Source: an uncultured Candidatus Saccharibacteria bacterium
Lineage (GTDB): Bacteria > Patescibacteriota > Saccharimonadia > Saccharimonadales > Saccharimonadaceae
Reading direction: 5' to 3'
Assembly (NCBI GenBank): GCA_964469535.1
Contig: CAYXZG010000001.1
Span: forward strand, 1-58,009
DNA: 58,009 bases
In this document: positions 92-37,233 of the stretch, in pieces
How positions within the stretch are numbered: the stretch's first letter is position 1
Layout: every line of letters starts with the position of its first letter
The notes under the pieces: generated by a model
The model's input: the letters and a program-made list of their open reading frames with translations, nothing else
The model's database searches: none
What the model was told of the DNA's origin: nothing
Made by a program: the position numbers and the translations under genes

Positions 92-197
92 GTATGAGGA
101 GTAGTGGGACGGATTTAGTATGTTCGGGTACGTTCGGTTTTGTTCGGTAGGATATGGGATACGAGATTGGGCGTTCGGCGAAAAAAGCTGTATTTCT

Positions 198-611
198 TGT
201 CCTAAGCACTGGCAACTACCAAGCGGTAAAGCTGAACTAAAGGTCAATCCTGATACAAATGACGAGTACTATGATCCAATTATGGTTGATAACGGGCTAT
301 GGAACCTGCTACAAAATTACGGTTGGCCTGGACCTGAAACAGAACAACATTATGGGCCACTAAACTGGACGAATGCCGATAAAGTTTACCATGGTGGGTT
401 GAGCCCATTTTACTTTCTACCGAGTGGAAGAGTAACCGATGGGTCAGATGGTCTTTCGCGTATCGTTAAAACTGGGCAATCGTGGACGAACGCAGCTTTT
501 AAGGGATCACTCGCGCTATATTACAGCGTTACTCATGATCTAGATAGTGTAGGCGTTAGTCGCGGCTATGAACGATATCATGGCCTCTCCCTTCGCTGCC
601 TCACTCAGTAG
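198..611 (+). other. Variable cassette A: C-terminal half of FISUMP (Fib_succ_major)-like domain, probably silent
   Basis: CPKHWQLPS...YGW...PFY...GLSLRCLTQ*; 19-bp 5' box at 204-222; 3' box 590-650; N-terminal extension from ATG 120 is not homologous to other copies. Confidence 0.75.
204..222 (+). repeat. 19-bp cassette 5' box AAGCACTGGCAACTACCAA (copy 1 of 6)
   Basis: Identical copies at 1295-1313(-), 8524-8542(-), 8560-8578(+), 37206-37224(-), 37251-37269(+). Confidence 0.95.
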
Positions 612-872: not shown

Positions 873-1322
873 CTACTGAGTGAGGCAGCGAAGAGAGTAA
901 GCACGCTTGGAATTATGATGAGAGAATTCCGTTACAAATATACCTGTTCCTGTAGAAGTTTCCCCTTCTCCATACATATAGGCACCGTGACCGAGTCCTA
1001 GATCTTGACGAGTTCCAGTCCAATAGTAGCCTCTGGTTGCAGGTAATATTAAAGCGTCTAGGATGCTATCAGATCCATAAACAGAGCCGCTGGAATTAAG
1101 GTAAAAAGGATTCAGAACAGTATCATATTCATGGCCTTCATACGTCCAGCTACTGGGAGCATGATAGCTATTGTTTGGGATTGTCCAGCCATAATGATCG
1201 TGCAGCAACCCATAGAGACTTTTCTGGACTGGAATAACATTTCCCCAATGTCCACCAGTCTCAGAATCGTCAGCGATCCATTCTCTCTTTCCGCTTGGTA
1301 GTTGCCAGTGCTTAGGGCAGAT
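873..1322 (-). other. Variable cassette B: C-terminal half of FISUMP-like domain, probably silent
   Basis: ICPKHWQLPSGKREW...YGW...PFY...AYSLRCLTQ*; 19-bp box at 1295-1313; only a TTG start with an unrelated short leader. Confidence 0.75.
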
Positions 1323-1369
1323 GAGACGGAGGCGAAGATACGTCAAAATGCTATGTTGTGGCGAGCGGG

Positions 1370-3788: not shown

Positions 3789-4814
3789 TTACCTCAAATG
3801 AAAGGCTTTTTGGACGGCGAGGAGCTTAGCATTGGCGATATTGTTGGCGTAAGCTTCGCTAATCTTGAGGTGCTCGAGGACGGTGGCGTCGTCGATGGTC
3901 GCAAGGCGATTTTGGATATTTTCGAGGAAAGTAGCGACGCTCTCGGCGACTTTTTGCTTCAGATCGCCATAATGAGTTTCGCCAGCCCAAGTCGAAATGA
4001 CATCTTGGAGCGGGAGATTGTTGACGATGGCTTCGATTTGGAGAAGATTACTGATACCGGGCTGATTAAACATGTCGAATTGGATTTTGCCGATGGAATC
4101 GGTCGTAGCGGACATGATCTTTTTCTTGACGGAAGCTGGATCGTCAGACATCATAATGCGACTATTTTCGGAGGCGGAGGATTTACTCATTTTCTTTTCG
4201 GGGTTTTGGAGGTCGCGAATCCGTAAGCCGTCGCTTAAGTTCATGAATTTGACTTGTTCTTTCGGCTCGGCGGGGAGGACGAAAGTTTCGCCGAAACGGT
4301 TGTTGAAGCGCTCGGCGAGGCGGCGCGTCAGCTCGATGTGCTGGAACTGATCTTCGCCGACCGGAATGTAAGTTGCGTCGTAGAGTAGAATGTCAGCAGC
4401 CATGAGGACGGGATAGTCGAAAATCCCGACGTTGACGCTATCTTTGCCGTCGCTTTTGTCTTTGTACTGGGTCATACGGTTCAGCTCGCCCATGGAAGCG
4501 ACGCAATTCAAAATCCAGCAGAGTTCGGAGTGCGCGGGGATGCGAGATTGGCGGTAGATGTGGACATTCGCATTCATCTCGAGTCCGGCAGCGAAATAAT
4601 ATTTGAGGGAGTGAAGAATGTTAGCTTGTAATTCCCCATTGATCTCGGCGATAATCGAGTGGAGATCGGGCGCGAAGATGTTGATCTGAGAAGTGGCGCT
4701 GTGCGCATTGGCGAGGCGAACCATCGGGAGCAGAGCGCCGAGAAAGTTGCCGAGCGTGAAATCATTGTTGACGCGCAGGCCAGTAAGAATAGTGGGTGAT
4801 TTTGGTGTATTCAT
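3789..4814 (-). CDS. trpS: Tryptophan--tRNA ligase (start re-called at ATG 4814)
   Basis: TLGNFLG (HIGH-like), YPVLMAADIL, VGEDQ, KMSKS; TGCTATAAT 6 nt upstream of ATG 4814. Confidence 0.95.
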   Translation of the reverse strand: MNTPKSPTILTGLRVNNDFTLGNFLGALLPMVRLANAHSATSQINIFAPDLHSIIAEINGELQANILHSLKYYFAAGLEMNANVHIYRQSRIPAHSELCWILNCVASMGELNRMTQYKDKSDGKDSVNVGIFDYPVLMAADILLYDATYIPVGEDQFQHIELTRRLAERFNNRFGETFVLPAEPKEQVKFMNLSDGLRIRDLQNPEKKMSKSSASENSRIMMSDDPASVKKKIMSATTDSIGKIQFDMFNQPGISNLLQIEAIVNNLPLQDVISTWAGETHYGDLKQKVAESVATFLENIQNRLATIDDATVLEHLKISEAYANNIANAKLLAVQKAFHLR

Positions 4815-4859
4815 GAGATAATTATAGCACAGGACGAGGCGGGCCAGCAAAAAATGTTC

Positions 4860-4888
4860 TTGACAAAATTGAGAGTTCGTGCCAAAAT
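4860..4888 (+). promoter_or_regulatory. Sigma70-type promoter for the Ubl operon
   Basis: TTGACA-N17-CAAAAT with TG extension; downstream hairpin AGAAGTACTA/TAGTACTTCT at ~4924-4951. Confidence 0.55.
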
Positions 4889-5014
4889 GAGAAAGGGACG
4901 GGAGTTTTTCTAGTCCCTAGAAAAGAAGTACTATTTTACGCTAGTACTTCTCTATCGTTTAAAAGGTTCGTAAAAATCTTTGGCAAATTAAAATTTTTGG
5001 AAAGAAGGGTTCGT

Positions 5015-6385
5015 ATGAGGGTGATGCGTCAGCGTGGGGATTCTGATTTTGAGGTGGAGCCGAAAGACGTTGTGACTGTGGTAATCATAGTGGCAGTCTG
5101 TTTAGTGCTGCTATTGGCGATTTTGACTGGTGTGGCTGCGCTCGTTGCGGTGGCCAACAATAGCCACATACCGGAATACAACGCATCGGCGGCGGAGTTC
5201 AATGCTTTTCCGCTGGACGTAAGGATGGCGATCACGCAGTGGACGGAACGAGATGATGTCGATCCGGAGACTTTCCTGATCACTGAGAAGACGCCAGAGC
5301 CGCTGTTTTTCTTGGCGGAAGAGTTTGAAAACGGGCAGGGTGGCAAAATATGCTGGATAGTTTTGGGCATATTCTTGCTCGCTTGTTCGTGCGCAACGTT
5401 TGCGCTCTACTTAGCAGAGCGATATAAACGTTTTTATCTGTGTTCTTTGCCTTACGACACGGTTTTTGGATGGGTGCTGTTTTTCATGATGTTCGTGAGC
5501 TGGCCGTTCATGCTGATTAGCTACATTTGTATGCGGATTCAGCGGACGGAAGAATTCCGGCGACGGCGAGAAAAACGCAAAGAGCTGCGCGAACAACGCC
5601 GGATGGCGGAGGAACGCGAAAAAGCCGAAGTGCGGCGGCTCGCAGAAAGCGAGCTAACGGCGGTCGCAAAGAAGATGACGCGACCGGCTTTCCCGGAGCG
5701 AGCGCACCGAGCGTTTGTCGAATACATCTTCAACGGTCAAGTGGACGCGCGCAAGGCGCGACGCGAAGAAGCGCGTAAGATGGTGGAAGACGCGAAGACG
5801 CAGCTGCAAGAAGCTGGTCAGGTAGTGAGTGATGCGCAACGGGCGCTGGGTGAAGCCAAGGCAAACTTAGAGCGTGTCGAGTCAGTCTATTCTGAGACGC
5901 GGAGCCTGATAGAGGCGGAAGCGGATTGGGAAGCGATCAAGGACGCTCGAGGTGTGTCGGGGATCACTTACGATCGGCGGCGCAAAAACCTTGCGATTAT
6001 CTTTAAAGTGCGGGTGCCGTATGAGGGGGAGTTGTACGATTTTGGCGACTATCGGCTCGTACTCGATGGTAGCGCGAGGTGCAGATGCAAAGAGATCCGT
6101 TCAGGTGTGAAACTTAACCATACGAGTGTTAGGCCGCTGTATCATATTGATGATAAGCTTTTTTGCTTTGGCCATAGCTTGGGGACGATCGAAGATTATC
6201 TGAGACACAGTCGCTACGTTGAAGCGATTACGCTGATCGTGAATTGTCTACATTCTGTGAACGGCGAGGACGCTGCGCGCGAAATTCCAAATTGCTTTCG
6301 CAAGGTCGAGGTGGTCGAGAAGGCCAAACGTCGGATCTTGCGTCGCAATAAATTGAAATTTTGGCAAAGGAGCGTGGGCGGATGA
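5015..6385 (+). CDS. Multi-TM and coiled-coil protein with C-terminal prokaryotic E2 (UBC)-like domain
   Basis: Three hydrophobic segments, long charged helix, then YDFGDYRLVL...PLYHIDDKLFCFG...YVEAITLIVNCLHSVN resembling the prokaryotic E2 H..C.G pattern; first gene of JAB-E1-Ubl operon; start uncertain (4997/5015/5024). Confidence 0.6.
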   Translation: MRVMRQRGDSDFEVEPKDVVTVVIIVAVCLVLLLAILTGVAALVAVANNSHIPEYNASAAEFNAFPLDVRMAITQWTERDDVDPETFLITEKTPEPLFFLAEEFENGQGGKICWIVLGIFLLACSCATFALYLAERYKRFYLCSLPYDTVFGWVLFFMMFVSWPFMLISYICMRIQRTEEFRRRREKRKELREQRRMAEEREKAEVRRLAESELTAVAKKMTRPAFPERAHRAFVEYIFNGQVDARKARREEARKMVEDAKTQLQEAGQVVSDAQRALGEAKANLERVESVYSETRSLIEAEADWEAIKDARGVSGITYDRRRKNLAIIFKVRVPYEGELYDFGDYRLVLDGSARCRCKEIRSGVKLNHTSVRPLYHIDDKLFCFGHSLGTIEDYLRHSRYVEAITLIVNCLHSVNGEDAAREIPNCFRKVEVVEKAKRRILRRNKLKFWQRSVGG

Positions 6386-6969
6386 ATTTGCGTGTACCCG
6401 GAGCACATCTGTGTATTCCCTTAGCGATCTGGCAGCGTTTGCGCATGTACGTGGAGCTGAGTGCGCCGCACGAGGTGACCGGCATTGGGACATTGATGCT
6501 GCTTGATGCGGAAAATTTCTATGTGAAAGAGGTGTTTTTGCCGCGACAAACTGCGTCGCAAGTTGACTGCGAGTTCCAGGAAGGAGAGTTGAACGAGATC
6601 ATCTATGAGCTCATGCAGGGCAATCCGAGTCGTGTCGAACAGCTGCGATTCCGGTGGCATTCGCATGGGTATAGCCAAGTTTTCTGGTCGCAGAAAGATG
6701 AACAAGATATTGCGGCCTGGGAAAGCCCGTGGGTCGTGAATTTAGTGATGAACGCACAAAACGAACGCCTGGCGCGGCTGGATCTATTTTCTCCGCTCAG
6801 GATTCGGAACTATCCGTTGAAGGTGGAGATCGTGATACCGGAAGATGCCAAGTTGCACAATGAATGCGCGGAAGAGTTAGAGCGCAAAGTGGCGTTTCAA
6901 GAAGCTGCGATGCGGTCGCTTGGAAAGGAGCCTGGAAATGGATTATTCGGATCAGCAAAAAATTTTTAA
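6382..6969 (+). CDS. JAB/MPN (JAMM) metallo-isopeptidase
   Basis: N-terminal Glu (HEVTG) and HSH-x7-S-x2-D (WHSHGYSQVFWSQKD); ATGA overlap with upstream stop. Confidence 0.85.
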   Translation: MNLRVPGAHLCIPLAIWQRLRMYVELSAPHEVTGIGTLMLLDAENFYVKEVFLPRQTASQVDCEFQEGELNEIIYELMQGNPSRVEQLRFRWHSHGYSQVFWSQKDEQDIAAWESPWVVNLVMNAQNERLARLDLFSPLRIRNYPLKVEIVIPEDAKLHNECAEELERKVAFQEAAMRSLGKEPGNGLFGSAKNF

Positions 6970-7612
6970 CGCGGACACGTGGGGTTGGCCGGTGCATTTG
7001 ATCGGCGCTGGCGGGATCAATAATCTCGTCGGTCCGACACTGGCGAAGATGGGCGTGCGCAAAATTCACGTCTGGGATGACGATATTTTGGAAACACGCA
7101 ATTGCCCGACGGAGGTCGCCTACGCTTATCTGATGGCTGGCCGGCCGAAAACCGATGCGATGGCGAACGTGATTGACTATCTGATGGACGGTAAAGTCCA
7201 AGTCGTTCAACACCGCGAGCGCGTAACGGCGGCAACGGTGCTGGAGAGTGGCGTGGTCGTCTGCGGGGTCGATTCGATGAAAAGTCGCCAAGCAATTTGG
7301 CAAAACGTGAAGACAAATTTTTTGAACGTTCCGTTGTTCATTGATGGACGCAGCGCAGGCGAAGAAACGGTAATTTTTGCTTTTGAACCGTCGGATTTCG
7401 GAGCGGCGGAAGACTATGAGTCGTGGTTGTTTGATGACGACGAAGCTTTGCAGCTGGAATGCGGTGCCCGCAATATCGGGTACATCGCGGCCTATATGGC
7501 GGCGGAGATCAGCCGCATTATGACAAGATTCCATCGGGGACTCCCGGTTGAATTTTATACTGCGCGCGATTTTTCCCAAAATAAGGAGGTAGTGAAATGG
7601 AGACTAATCTGA
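6938..7612 (+). CDS. ThiF/E1-like ubiquitin-activating adenylyltransferase
   Basis: LIGAGGI, WDDDILETRN, GRPKT, VCGVDS..SR, FIDGR; candidate catalytic Cys in LECGA; SD AAGGAG. Confidence 0.88.
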   Translation: MDYSDQQKIFNADTWGWPVHLIGAGGINNLVGPTLAKMGVRKIHVWDDDILETRNCPTEVAYAYLMAGRPKTDAMANVIDYLMDGKVQVVQHRERVTAATVLESGVVVCGVDSMKSRQAIWQNVKTNFLNVPLFIDGRSAGEETVIFAFEPSDFGAAEDYESWLFDDDEALQLECGARNIGYIAAYMAAEISRIMTRFHRGLPVEFYTARDFSQNKEVVKWRLI

Positions 7613-7854
7613 AGAAACCTGAGCAGGCAGCTCCTGAGTCGATCGTGAAGATCGCGAACGGCGCCGGCAACGAACCGATCGAGATCGTTTGGCGCGAGGG
7701 CGACACGGTCGCCAGTGTACTGAAGCGGGCCAACATCACCATCGAGCCTGGACGGACGGCGACGATCGGCCGGCAGCGGATCAGCAAACCGAAGAAGACG
7801 GAGGTGCGCCCGGGCGAGGTCATCGTGATTGCCGGCAAGCCCAGCAACGGCTAA
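7597..7854 (+). CDS. Ubiquitin-like (beta-grasp, ThiS/MoaD-like) protein ending in Gly
   Basis: 85 aa; GDTVASVL...VRPGEVIVIAGKPSNG*; strong SD TAAGGAGGT; follows E1. Confidence 0.72.
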   Translation: METNLKKPEQAAPESIVKIANGAGNEPIEIVWREGDTVASVLKRANITIEPGRTATIGRQRISKPKKTEVRPGEVIVIAGKPSNG

Positions 7855-7871
7855 TCTTTCCAAAAATGCGG

Positions 7872-7900
7872 AGCCCTCGACCTTCGGGTCGGGGGCTTTT
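7872..7900 (+). terminator. Rho-independent terminator of Ubl operon
   Basis: AGCCCTCGACC-TTCG-GGTCGGGGGCT then TTT. Confidence 0.75.
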
Positions 7901-7913
7901 CCATTGCACCAGA

Positions 7914-8074
7914 GAAGTTTATGAATCCACTCCGACGCCCTGTCTTTGTCGTTTAGTGAATCCCTTAGTCTCCTTTTATCATCCGGTGGCGCTCTCCGGA
8001 GCGAATCGCTTTCGCTCCCGTGCTCCGGACCCGCGCCAGCCGGGAAACGATGCTAAAAGGAGACTAAGGGATTC
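7914..8074. repeat. Nested-palindrome element (MITE/REP-like) abutting the 3' end of cassette C
   Basis: 26-bp IR GAATCCCTTAGTCTCCTTTTATCATC (7958-7983) / GATGCTAAAAGGAGACTAAGGGATTC (8049-8074), one mismatch; inner stems; second copy at 57893-58009. Confidence 0.88.
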
Positions 8075-8131
8075 TATATACAGCAAAGGCTGAATATCTA
8101 TCATATTATATCTACCTACTAGAGGATACTA

Positions 8132-8542
8132 CTACTGAGTGAGGCAGCGAAGAGCGTAACCATCCGAGTAATAGGCCCCACTCGATAAACGCACATTATC
8201 GGAGCTAAGGCCCGTGCGCATGCTGAGTGCGTTTACGGCCGTAGAAGTATGTAGCCAACTTGAGAAACGAGTACCCTTCAGATTTAGGCCTTGTGGTATA
8301 AGCGTTTGAATCATGCCGGAAGGCATTGCGTAAAATGGTAATAATTGCACGTTGTAAAACATACCGTTATCTTCCCAAACACCCTTACCATCTCGGAAAC
8401 TGTCTTGATTAAGCTTCCAACCATAGTTATTCAGCATCATCCAAAAACTATTTTCTGCCATGATTGGATTATAGTATCCACCACTCTCATAATCCTCATC
8501 AACAATCCATTCACCTTTTGCATTTGGTAGTTGCCAGTGCTT
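8132..8542 (-). other. Variable cassette C: C-terminal half of FISUMP-like domain, probably silent
   Basis: KHWQLPNAKGEW...YGW...PFY...YALRCLTQ*; ORF-track start lies inside the antisense of cassette D. Confidence 0.75.
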
Positions 8543-8550
8543 TTCGGCCC

Positions 8551-8922
8551 ATCTGTCCCAAGCACTGGCAACTACCAAGAGCAAAATCAGACGGTACAAC
8601 CGCTGTATTGGTCGAGGAAAGTCTCTGGGGCATGCTCAAAGAATATGGCTGGACAGTTAATCACAATTGGTATCACGGACCGAACCAGTGGACGCAAAAT
8701 GGAACACAATATAACGGAGCTTCCGCCCCGTTTTATCTCATGCGGGCTGGCAATATAGCAAACACCTCAAAACTAACACGACCTATTGACGAATCTGGCC
8801 AAGGTGGTCTTATGCACGGCGCCACCAGTGCAGATATTTTCGGGCTAGAAGCAAATGTGATTAATGTTGGAGTTGGATATAGCCAAAGGCGTGGCACTTC
8901 CCTTCGCTGCCTCACCCAGTAG
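8551..8922 (+). other. Variable cassette D: C-terminal half of FISUMP-like domain, probably silent
   Basis: ICPKHWQLPR...YGW...PFY...GTSLRCLTQ*; back-to-back with C with only 17 bp between the 19-bp boxes. Confidence 0.75.
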
Positions 8923-8982
8923 TAGTATCCTCTAGTAGGTAGATATGTATGTGATAGTGATGTTCTATGCTATAATGTTAGC

Positions 8983-9696
8983 ATGAGGAAAGTCCAGGGT
9001 GAGGCGACCGAAAAAACGGAATTGTCGAGAGCGAAGTTTGCGGAAGGGCTGTGTTTTAAGAAATTGTTTATGATTTTTTTGATCGGGTCGGTATTCGGCA
9101 CGGTTTATGAGGATTTGTTGATCTATTGGCAGACTTTCCAGGCGACGGGTACGGGTGTGTGGATGCTGCATCGCGGCGTGATTTACGGGCCATTTAATGT
9201 GGTTTATGGGTTTGGAGCAGCGGTGATGTGCTGGGTGCTGCTGCGAAAGGCTTACAACAACTGGCAGATTTTTGGTTTGGCAGCGGTGCTTGGTGGTGTA
9301 GTAGAGTACGCAGTGAGTTTTTTGCAGGAGTTTTTTACGCACACAACTTCGTGGGACTATACCGGTTCGTTTTTGAGTATAAATGGGCGGACGACGGTGC
9401 CGATTATGATTTTTTGGGGATTCTTAGGGATTTTGTTGGTGAAAGTGGTTTATCCGTTTTGCTCGAATTTGATTGAAAAAATTCCACCGCAGGTTGGAAA
9501 TCCATTGTTTAATGTCCTATTGGTGCTGATGATCTTTGATATGCTGATTTCTTGGTCGGCGATCATTCGTCAGACTTTGCGGCATAATCAAATTCCTCCG
9601 TACACGCCAGTGGGTGAATTTTTGGACAGACATTATGATGACCAGTTTTTGCGCAAGTATTTTCCAAACATGGTGCATGAGGATTTAGAAAAATGA
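8983..9696 (+). CDS. CmpB/TMEM229-family (putative ABC transporter permease) membrane protein
   Basis: HRGVIYGPFNVVYGFG, VEYAVS, WDY, INGR motifs; paralog at 51378-52127. Confidence 0.8.
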   Translation: MRKVQGEATEKTELSRAKFAEGLCFKKLFMIFLIGSVFGTVYEDLLIYWQTFQATGTGVWMLHRGVIYGPFNVVYGFGAAVMCWVLLRKAYNNWQIFGLAAVLGGVVEYAVSFLQEFFTHTTSWDYTGSFLSINGRTTVPIMIFWGFLGILLVKVVYPFCSNLIEKIPPQVGNPLFNVLLVLMIFDMLISWSAIIRQTLRHNQIPPYTPVGEFLDRHYDDQFLRKYFPNMVHEDLEK

Positions 9697-36810: not shown

Positions 36811-37233
36811 CTACTGAGTGAGGCAGCGAAGGGAGTAAGCACGCTTGGGGTTGTGGCTAGAGAATTCCGTGTACCCTACAGTACGTCCGTACACATACGT
36901 GTAAATCTTTTCTTTTGCTCGACGATTAGACCAGTAAAAACCTACATCTGCTGGATCTTGCAACGAGTCAAAATTTGTATCTCTCCCATAGACCATTCCA
37001 CTAGCGTTAAGATAAAACGGCGTAATATAGGTATTATACGTTGTCCCCTCATAGGCCCAGTTGCTAGACCTATAGAAGCTATTGTCGGGAAGGATCCAGC
37101 CATAATAATTGTATAACAGACCATAGAGACTTTTCTGGACTGGAATAACATTTCCCCAATGACCACCAGTCTCAGAATCGTCAGCGATCCATTCTCTCTT
37201 TCCGCTTGGTAGTTGCCAGTGCTTAGGACAGAT
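36811..37233 (-). other. Variable cassette E: C-terminal half of FISUMP-like domain, no start codon
   Basis: ICPKHWQLPSGKREWIADDSETGGHWGNVIPVQKSLYGLLYNYYGW...AYSLRCLTQ*; in-frame TAG two codons upstream of ICP. Confidence 0.78.

Follow-up and report, generated by a model that had tools for sequence, protein, structure and literature searches.

Organization of the Operon

A four-gene operon for a putative ubiquitin-like conjugation pathway is encoded on the forward strand of contig CAYXZG010000001.1 from an uncultured Candidatus Saccharibacteria bacterium. The whole stretch of 58,009 nucleotides is referred to here as the window, and it represents contig C1 of an 866-kb genome that is 98% complete. 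The four overlapping open reading frames (ORFs) encode a predicted membrane-anchored E2-like protein of 456 amino acids (P0001, 5015–6385), a JAB/JAMM zinc peptidase of 195 amino acids (P0002, 6382–6969), a minimal single-domain E1 of 224 amino acids (P0003, 6938–7612), and a beta-grasp ubiquitin-like protein (Ubl) of 85 amino acids with a C-terminal Asn-Gly (P0004, 7597–7854). Each gene is present once in the genome. The GC content of the operon and its GC content at third codon positions (GC3) are near those of the adjoining housekeeping genes.

A sigma70-type promoter-like site, TTGACA-17-(TG)-CAAAAT, is located at 4860–4888 on the forward strand. It has 10 of 12 matches with an extended –10 element and is the top promoter match within 4000–9000. 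A promoter-like site scoring at least 9 was found upstream of the first gene in 31 of the 32 related loci scanned. Downstream of the Ubl gene, a GC-rich hairpin with a T tail, resembling an intrinsic terminator, appears at about 7870–7902 on the same strand. A first-pass annotation, made from the DNA letters without database searches, had described four overlapping co-oriented genes with their own promoter and terminator, and the ORF coordinates (5015–7854) and these two sites agree with that description. The same annotation proposed a complete E1-E2-JAB-Ubl conjugation set, as opposed to a sulfur-carrier pathway, and this proposal is supported by the analysis below. A Pfam scan of the four proteins returned no credible family for the first (E2) or last (Ubl) gene.

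The E2-like Domain

The E2-like part of P0001 comprises the last ~150 residues of the protein. Modeling and alignment place a UBC/RWD-fold domain at 5897–6352 (forward strand) with the motif P-x-Y...F-C-F-G and a conserved H-S-V-N. The annotation of the first gene as E2-like was retained for this C-terminal portion. The remainder of the chain, which that annotation did not recognize as membrane-bound, is predicted to cross the membrane more than once and to lead into a coiled-coil stalk, and this predicted anchor is the most distinctive trait of the operon. Cys384 (codon 6164–6166) is invariant in 140 of 140 sequences, where it is the sole invariant column, and in all 60 sequences of a second alignment. 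The histidine in C-L-H-S-V-N (H413) is invariant in 14 close homologues and is conserved at less than 90% in the set of 140.

The structure model of the C-terminal 152 residues has a predicted local distance difference test score (pLDDT) of 95.5 and the secondary structure of the UBC fold, with a helix, a four-strand meander, a flap, and further helices. The best Foldseek match to this model has an E value of 0.036, and all of the rows listed but two are E2, UEV, or RWD entries. Alignment with VIA-align gave Knl1 (Z 7.1, root-mean-square deviation (rmsd) 3.0, 89 residues aligned), Mms2 (Z 7.0, rmsd 3.9, 119 aligned), Vps23 (Z 6.9), and a bacterial CBASS E2 (Z 6.4, rmsd 3.9, 114 aligned). UFC1 is also among the structural matches (Z 6.2–6.4), and no Bil, Bub, or PRTRC E2 is among those listed. 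When the E2 domain was used to search the ESM Atlas, three unnamed, mostly viral clusters were obtained (0.89–0.93).

The cousins of this protein in phages retain the canonical H-P-H...C-x-G E2 motif, in place of which the membrane forms have P-x-Y...F-C-F-G, and the two groups align via the same cysteine. A joint E2 profile weakly matches human UBE2A and UBE2L3 (E 0.75–0.94, not significant), with the cysteine at positions 88 and 86, respectively, which we take to be the catalytic cysteines of these enzymes. From the alignments and the model, the domain is probably a divergent E2 of an unnamed family and is predicted to be active.

Ten soluble proteins contain tandem E2-like domains (P0170, P0188, P0189, P0197, P0203, P0212, P0240, P0242, P0262, and P0265), and L028:2402–3727 is listed with them. 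In these proteins only the first domain was found to carry the F-C-F motif. Copies lacking the cysteine occurred only as second domains beside a copy that bears it.

Predicted Membrane Module and Stalk

The predicted membrane module of P0001 (5069–5533, forward strand) was defined by hydropathy and charge bias across 132 homologues. It consists of a first transmembrane segment (TM1, residues 19–47), an acidic loop of ~62 residues, a second transmembrane segment (TM2, residues 111–133), and a third, proline-kinked hydrophobic segment (residues 150–173), with a conserved Y..Y-L-x-D-L-P loop between TM2 and the third segment. A coiled-coil stalk is predicted for residues ~189–300 (5579–5914, forward strand) from the charged helical composition and weak profile matches to coiled-coil chains. 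In a set of 162 E2 homologues, ranked with window-seeded queries and therefore biased to the membrane form, 132 are at least 350 residues long with at least two hydrophobic segments, 5 are shorter with at least one, and the remaining 25 lack such segments.

Within the 132 homologues a basic N-terminus (K+R of 0.22 per residue) precedes TM1, an acidic loop of ~62 residues (D+E of 0.17 versus K+R of 0.10) comes between TM1 and TM2, and basic flanks follow both TM2 and the third segment. The last hydrophobic segment is separated from the E2 core by a median of 132 residues. The simplest topology suggested by this pattern would have the N-terminus inside the cell, loop 1 outside, TM2 returning to the inside, a third segment that is likely re-entrant, and the stalk and E2 domain in the cytoplasm. 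An outer loop of this kind would suit a sensing role.

Apart from one marginal match with an E value of 0.005, every occurrence of the membrane module was in fusion with E2. It was not detected in 10 viral loci, two additional scans of viral sequences, made with alignments of the JAB and of the full-length E2, were also empty, and no short stand-alone version was present among 49 candidates. A search of the ESM Atlas with the module gave nothing usable. A literature search in which subscription journals were mostly absent returned no paper on a membrane-anchored bacterial E2 or on this family. The anchored arrangement does not appear in the available main text of the papers on ubiquitin-like systems of bacteria that were within reach of that search.

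E1, JAB, and Ubl

The E1 is a single adenylation domain (ThiF Pfam match, E = 4.6e-14) with a GAGG motif and no zinc-binding CxxC. Its three cysteines are C56, C109, and C175, of which only C175 (codon 7460–7462) is conserved, being invariant in 48 of 48 homologues and, by alignment count, in 58 of 58 sequences across bacterial and viral loci. The ThiF motifs and the absence of CxxC pairs noted in the first-pass annotation were thus recovered, and its lone cysteine became one conserved residue of three. The conserved cysteine at E1 profile position 176 aligns to position 184 of Escherichia coli ThiF, presumably the crossover-loop cysteine of that enzyme.

The JAB protein matches Prok-JAB in Pfam with an E value of 5.5e-4, a match below the curated cut-off. 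The JAMM motif already recognized in the second gene was confirmed as E31...H93-S-H95-x7-S103-x2-D106 in the window, and H-S-H-x7-S-x2-D is intact in 42 of 43 bacterial JAB homologues.

The structure model of the Ubl has a pLDDT of 85.6 and a beta-grasp fold, as had been proposed for this 85-residue protein. The model matches the beta-grasp proteins RnfH (Z 9.3, rmsd 1.8, 63 residues aligned), SAMP1 (Z 8.4), and ThiS (Z 8.0), and the Ubl profile matches SAMP2-type chains with E values of 1.7e-6 and 3.8e-6. In an alignment of 38 family members just two columns are invariant, the terminal Asn and Gly (38 of 38), and there is no invariant lysine. The Ubl of the window terminates in KPSNG and requires no trimming. 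Ten of the 38 Ubls extend one or two residues past Asn-Gly (S, Q, R, C, RG, QI, QI, A, V, and L). The GC3 of the Ubl gene is above that of the E1 gene in 32 of 35 loci. High expression of the Ubl was considered and dropped, its codon bias being at the 71st percentile relative to 7 motif-picked reference genes.

The JAB had been described earlier as a deconjugase and not a maturase. The Ubl in the window is indeed already mature, but the JAB of the family must also act as a maturase because 10 of the 38 Ubls carry the additional residues. That a JAB is kept beside a Ubl with no need of trimming suggests that it deconjugates too, and the JAB likely both trims Ubl precursors and removes the tag. 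In the JAB-less variants L038, L048, L070, and L119/L120 the Ubls end directly in Gly.

Distribution and Relatives

A scan of species genomes identified 39 loci, two of which are unrelated ThiF genes. The remaining 37 family loci consist of 28 with the complete membrane E2-JAB-E1-Ubl operon (present in two copies at one of them), one with a shortened anchor, three truncated at a contig end, and five soluble variants, three of them without JAB. A metagenome scan gave the same picture. The operon is more than a chance association, the identical gene set and order being complete in 28 of the 37 loci. With the genome of the window excluded, the cassette was found in 5 of 100 relatives, 7 of 400 Saccharimonadia, and 3 of 400 genomes of the phylum. 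Intact frames with invariant catalytic residues extend down to about 33% E1 identity. Related soluble cassettes are carried on 10 viral contigs of 48–395 kb (IMG/VR, L052–L061), and plasmids gave three marginal matches only.

An E1 tree was constructed from 56 rows by a quick search, with the long-branch rows L050 and L066 left out. A branch with a support of 95 in the Shimodaira–Hasegawa-like approximate likelihood ratio test (SH-aLRT) places all 10 viral rows and 2 bacterial rows on one side and the 34 membrane-form rows, without exception, on the other. The membrane form is interspersed with soluble bacterial forms, and the window is located in a 17-row clade with a support of 100. A single origin of the membrane form is compatible with this tree. 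Two rows are placed at odds with their labels: L035 (labeled Binatia) lies inside the Saccharimonadia clade and L040 (labeled Gammaproteobacteria) lies among the viral rows, possibly through misbinning or transfer.

Several loci have unusual arrangements. The operon at L012:6918–10635 starts with a soluble E2 and has a membrane E2 after the Ubl, which ends in NG-S. Two complete operons are arranged in tandem at L034:3790–11315, and L093 has a membrane-type operon followed by a soluble type ordered E2-Ubl-JAB-E1. A second E2-JAB pair is found downstream at L026. The JAB-less E2-E1-Ubl cassette at L038:3105–9021 is inserted between hrcA-grpE and dnaK and may lie in a heat-shock context. The cultured Xanthomonas jumbo phage PhiXhv-12 (L081:1754–5630) has a JAB-less cassette. 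Its candidate Ubl terminates in GG, an E2-like domain with HPH...CLG is part of an 892-residue protein, and the E1 has been annotated as a protein of thiamine biosynthesis. Many phages of Bacteroidota (Flavobacterium and Bacteroides) carry a related E1. The cassette of the Crassvirales phage cr85_1 (L080:1936–5651), in which the E1 gene follows a JAB gene, is a more distant one that shares both genes; it was not counted in the family because the neighboring gene has no match to the E2 profile.

The genes flanking the operon were analyzed for 150 of 162 neighboring ORFs from 35 loci. Those that could be named are mostly housekeeping genes (tRNA ligases, topA, polA, rny, dnaK, and secA), and no sulfur-pathway or phage gene was named among the 150. 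In a small subclade (the window, L008, L013, L014, and L017) the operon adjoins the same CmpB-like and glycosyltransferase genes. The reported absence of thiamine and molybdopterin genes nearby was confirmed and extends to the whole genome, where ThiG and MoaE were not found. Genes of the cysteine-desulfurase family and an MnmA-family gene are present in this genome.

Comparison with Known Systems

The first-pass annotation had filed the operon with the Bil, Bub, or PRTRC systems. The operon fails the defining tests of all three and those of Type II CBASS. As described in the available text of the Bil papers (Chambers et al., 10.1101/2023.09.26.559546; Hor et al., 10.1101/2023.09.04.556158), the Type I/II Bil pathway, an anti-phage system that conjugates its Ubl to a virion protein, is similar in having four stand-alone genes, a cysteine-based E1 and E2, no E3, a JAB that pre-processes the Ubl, and the order E2-JAB-E1. 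The Bil E1, however, is multidomain (IAD-AAD-CYS) in the portions available of PMC11601596 and 10.1101/2023.09.26.559546, in contrast to the 224-residue single ThiF domain found here, and the Bil order Ubl-E2-DUB-E1 (DUB, deubiquitinase) differs from the E2-JAB-E1-Ubl order of the window and of 28 of 28 complete membrane-form loci. Unlike in Bil, the E2 is a 456-residue predicted membrane protein, and the family is seldom beside defense genes. The BilA, BilB, and BilC models had no match in the window, and BilD gave only 18 bits (E = 2e-4) over E1 residues 42–120, the nucleotide-binding part. None of the Bil models matched among 13 E2 domains scanned.

Operon type 6d, from the sections available of Iyer, Burroughs, and Aravind (2006, PMC1779556), is similar in its stand-alone Ubl with a terminal Gly, its JAB and E1, and its E2, which has no histidine at the usual place but one further downstream, as with H413 here. 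In contrast to type 6d, there is no JAB-N domain here (the conserved JAB region begins near residue 10) and no extra alpha-helical protein, and no membrane anchor is described in the type 6d section of PMC1779556, as far as that text is available. With the NCBIfam PRTRC models, scores of 16.7 bits for PRTRC_A (cut-off 101.8) and 20.4 bits for PRTRC_ThiF (cut-off 144.75) were obtained, and none for the E2 or Ubl. We take type 6d to be the PRTRC system of NCBIfam.

The Bub system (6E/DUF6527), in the available text of Ye et al. (PMC11601596), shares a minimal adenylation domain of the ThiF/UBA5 type, a beta-grasp Ubl, a JAB maturase, and the lack of an E3. According to the same text, Bub uses oxyesters on Tyr (E1) and Ser (E2), whereas Cys is found here in 58 of 58 E1 and 60 of 60 E2 sequences. 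The Bub genes are fused (Ubl-E2 with JAB-E1, or E2-E1) and accompanied by DUF6527, whereas the four genes here are unfused and gave no DUF6527 match. Type II CBASS contains an E2-E1 fusion and a CD-NTase; here the genes are separate and no CD-NTase model was matched among the 150 neighbors at E ≤ 1e-8.

Eukaryotic membrane-anchored E2s such as Ubc6/UBE2J have a C-terminal tail anchor. The UBA5-UFC1-UFM1 pathway is an analogue, with no closer homology, in its minimal E1, crossover-loop cysteine, and single-Gly Ubl that is freed from a short extension; like Ubc6/UBE2J, it is also comparable in working at a membrane. Relative to these eukaryotic systems, there is no E3 here, a JAB is found in place of a cysteine protease, and the anchor is N-terminal and multi-pass. 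The cassettes of large phages (L052–L061 and PhiXhv-12) have an E1 of the same family (27–36% identity), a JAB, a Ubl, and E2-like domains. They differ in their soluble HPH E2s, often with long N-terminal regions or as two E2 genes, in Ubls that mostly end in GG(x) or KG(x), and in the absence of the membrane module. By analogy, the operon is Bil-like in its logic and UBA5-UFC1-UFM1-like in its minimal E1.

Leader Region and Other Features of the Window

Most operons of the family begin with a near-consensus promoter, a hairpin, and then a motif with the consensus TTGTTTTTTAACAA. At a score of at least 10 (leave-one-out, in-sample), this motif is present in 18 of 32 leaders, versus 4 of 209 promoters in one control set and 2 of 62 in another; out of sample, it is present in 4 of 15 leaders, with near-duplicates included, versus 5 of 110 controls. 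The leader in the window contains two hairpins at 4894–4918 and 4924–4951 (forward strand), followed at 4980–4994 (forward strand) by a boxA-like element identified from a hand-picked alignment. This copy is degenerate, with a best leave-one-out score of 7.4 that lands on a neighboring stretch. A search of Rfam over 4800–8200, which included the leader hairpins, gave no match at E ≤ 1.

The motif resembles the boxA consensus as stated in the available portions of PMC5725501 and PMC13753749. In 3 of 4 Saccharimonadia genomes a similar element precedes the 16S gene by 67–91 nucleotides, and it exceeds the 95th percentile of shuffled sequences in only 1 of the 4. NusB is encoded in the genome of the window, and no Rho above the cut-off was found in the 5 genomes searched. 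The boxA-like leader may point to Nus-dependent control with putative NusB/S10 binding, and it is presented here as a lead and not as a result.

A separate observation concerns frames ending in [SPA]LRCLTQ-stop, which account for ~63 of 71 pattern matches in the genome. They are mostly 130–200 codons long and are spread over some 40 contigs, often as opposed pairs or at contig ends. In the window they are located at 120–611 (forward), 873–1346 (reverse), 8132–8599 (reverse), and 8464–8922 (forward), with two others ending near 36811 (reverse) and 37670 (forward). This pattern resembles a dispersed repertoire of variable C-terminal cassettes for a surface protein. These C-termini appear similar to those of Fib_succ_major proteins, and Pfam PF09603 gave one weak match only.

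Proposed Mechanism and Alternatives

The operon is proposed, with a probability of about 0.72, to catalyze protein tagging by a thioester relay at the cytoplasmic face of the membrane. From the chemistry of the E1, E2, and JAB families, the E1 would adenylate the terminal Gly85 of the Ubl and then form a thioester on Cys175. The Ubl would next be passed to Cys384 of the predicted membrane-anchored E2, which would transfer it to proteins within reach of the membrane in the absence of an E3, presumably through an isopeptide bond as proposed for Bil. The JAB would trim extended Ubl precursors and remove the tag.

Several points weigh against this proposal. No Foldseek match of the E2 domain was obtained at E ≤ 0.001, every structural Z value is below 8 and tied with those of non-catalytic RWD/UEV domains, and the domain has no family match in Pfam, NCBIfam, PADLOC, or PHROG. 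The first histidine of the HPH/HPN motif is lost in the membrane forms. The topology is drawn from hydropathy and charge, and three true transmembrane passes would place the E2 outside the cell. The homologue set is biased to the membrane form. The JAB-less L066 has a weak Ubl candidate ending in Gly-Ser (E 4e-3), a possible exception to the direct Gly ending of the other JAB-less variants. No fifth recurring gene was found, the flanks vary from locus to locus, and no target gene co-occurs. For the defense part of the proposal, clear defense-type genes are beside only about 3 of 35 loci (L017, L025, and L041), a count with no control set.

The same relay could end on the head-group amine of a membrane lipid, with the anchor bringing the E2 to its acceptor, and Atg8 lipidation is the analogue for such a reaction. 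This would accommodate the minimal single-domain E1, the lack of an E3, the single-Gly Ubl that often has a one- or two-residue extension and has no invariant lysine, the predicted tethering of the E2, and the lack of a co-occurring target gene. A lipid acceptor is nevertheless unlikely given the ~130-residue linker between the last hydrophobic segment and the E2 domain, the catalytic core shared with soluble and phage forms, and the modification of proteins by the characterized bacterial systems in the available text of PMC11601596 and 10.1101/2023.09.26.559546. The presence of coiled-coil-borne RWD/UEV domains among the top structural matches (Knl1, Z 7.1; Vps23, Z 6.9) raises another option, in which the E2-fold domain would not be catalytic but would serve on its coiled coil as an adaptor of the RWD/UEV type that binds the Ubl, and the E1 alone would conjugate in the manner of SAMP/Urm1. 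The Ubl matches to SAMP2-type chains (E 1.7e-6 and 3.8e-6) are in line with this option. However, the sole invariant column in 140 sequences is a cysteine at the E2 catalytic position, and Cys-less copies are seen only next to a Cys-bearing one, so that an adaptor role appears distinctly unlikely.

A sulfur carrier, in which the adenylated Ubl is thiocarboxylated for tRNA or cofactor thiolation, would draw on the ThiF- and ThiS-like folds and on the cysteine-desulfurase-family and MnmA-family genes of the genome. It is very improbable in view of the missing ThiG and MoaE (TtuA and ThiI were not searched), the lack of any sulfur-pathway gene named among the 150 neighbors, and the absence of a rhodanese domain and of zinc CxxC, and it leaves the strict link to a Cys-bearing E2 unexplained. 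The patchy distribution and the location of the closest outgroup operons on large viral contigs would also be expected of a decaying phage-derived remnant without current function. This is the least probable explanation; even at E1 identities as low as about 33% the frames are intact and the catalytic residues invariant, a dedicated promoter and terminator frame the operon, its GC and GC3 are near those of neighboring housekeeping genes, no phage genes were named in the flanks, and the membrane module occurs in 0 of 10 viral loci, with further viral scans empty.

If the operon does conjugate its Ubl, conflict at the membrane with mobile elements, phages included, would be the likeliest single purpose, because of the rarity of the cassette, its viral cousins, and the Bil precedent, at somewhat less than even odds. 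Regulation of envelope or host-contact proteins of the cell itself would come next, and another purpose is left the smallest share; all three assignments are of low confidence. Anti-phage defense is plausible, and the gene neighborhoods do not support it. A more speculative and rather doubtful extension is that the protein is a receptor-like E2, the first in bacteria, whose outer loop would sense contact (phage adsorption or the host cell on which the epibiont is parasitic) and whose cytoplasmic E2 would tag membrane-proximal proteins or lipid. Saccharimonadia would then have assembled a transmembrane ubiquitin-like signaling system out of a cassette that large phages also have, and would have brought it under the control of Nus/boxA.

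Implications

The Type II CBASS, Bil, and Bub pathways are described without a membrane anchor in the available text of PMC11601596 and 10.1101/2023.09.26.559546. If the proposed membrane tagging is correct, bacteria would be able to confine Ubl conjugation to a membrane by means of a membrane-embedded E2 and a minimal E1, with no E3 involved, comparable to what eukaryotes do at the endoplasmic reticulum. The soluble phage cousins provide a natural comparison for the membrane form. The cassette is kept in genomes of less than 1 Mb, in gut and environmental Saccharimonadia alike, and it would offer a small, fully clonable handle on phage resistance or on the management of host contact by these epibionts.

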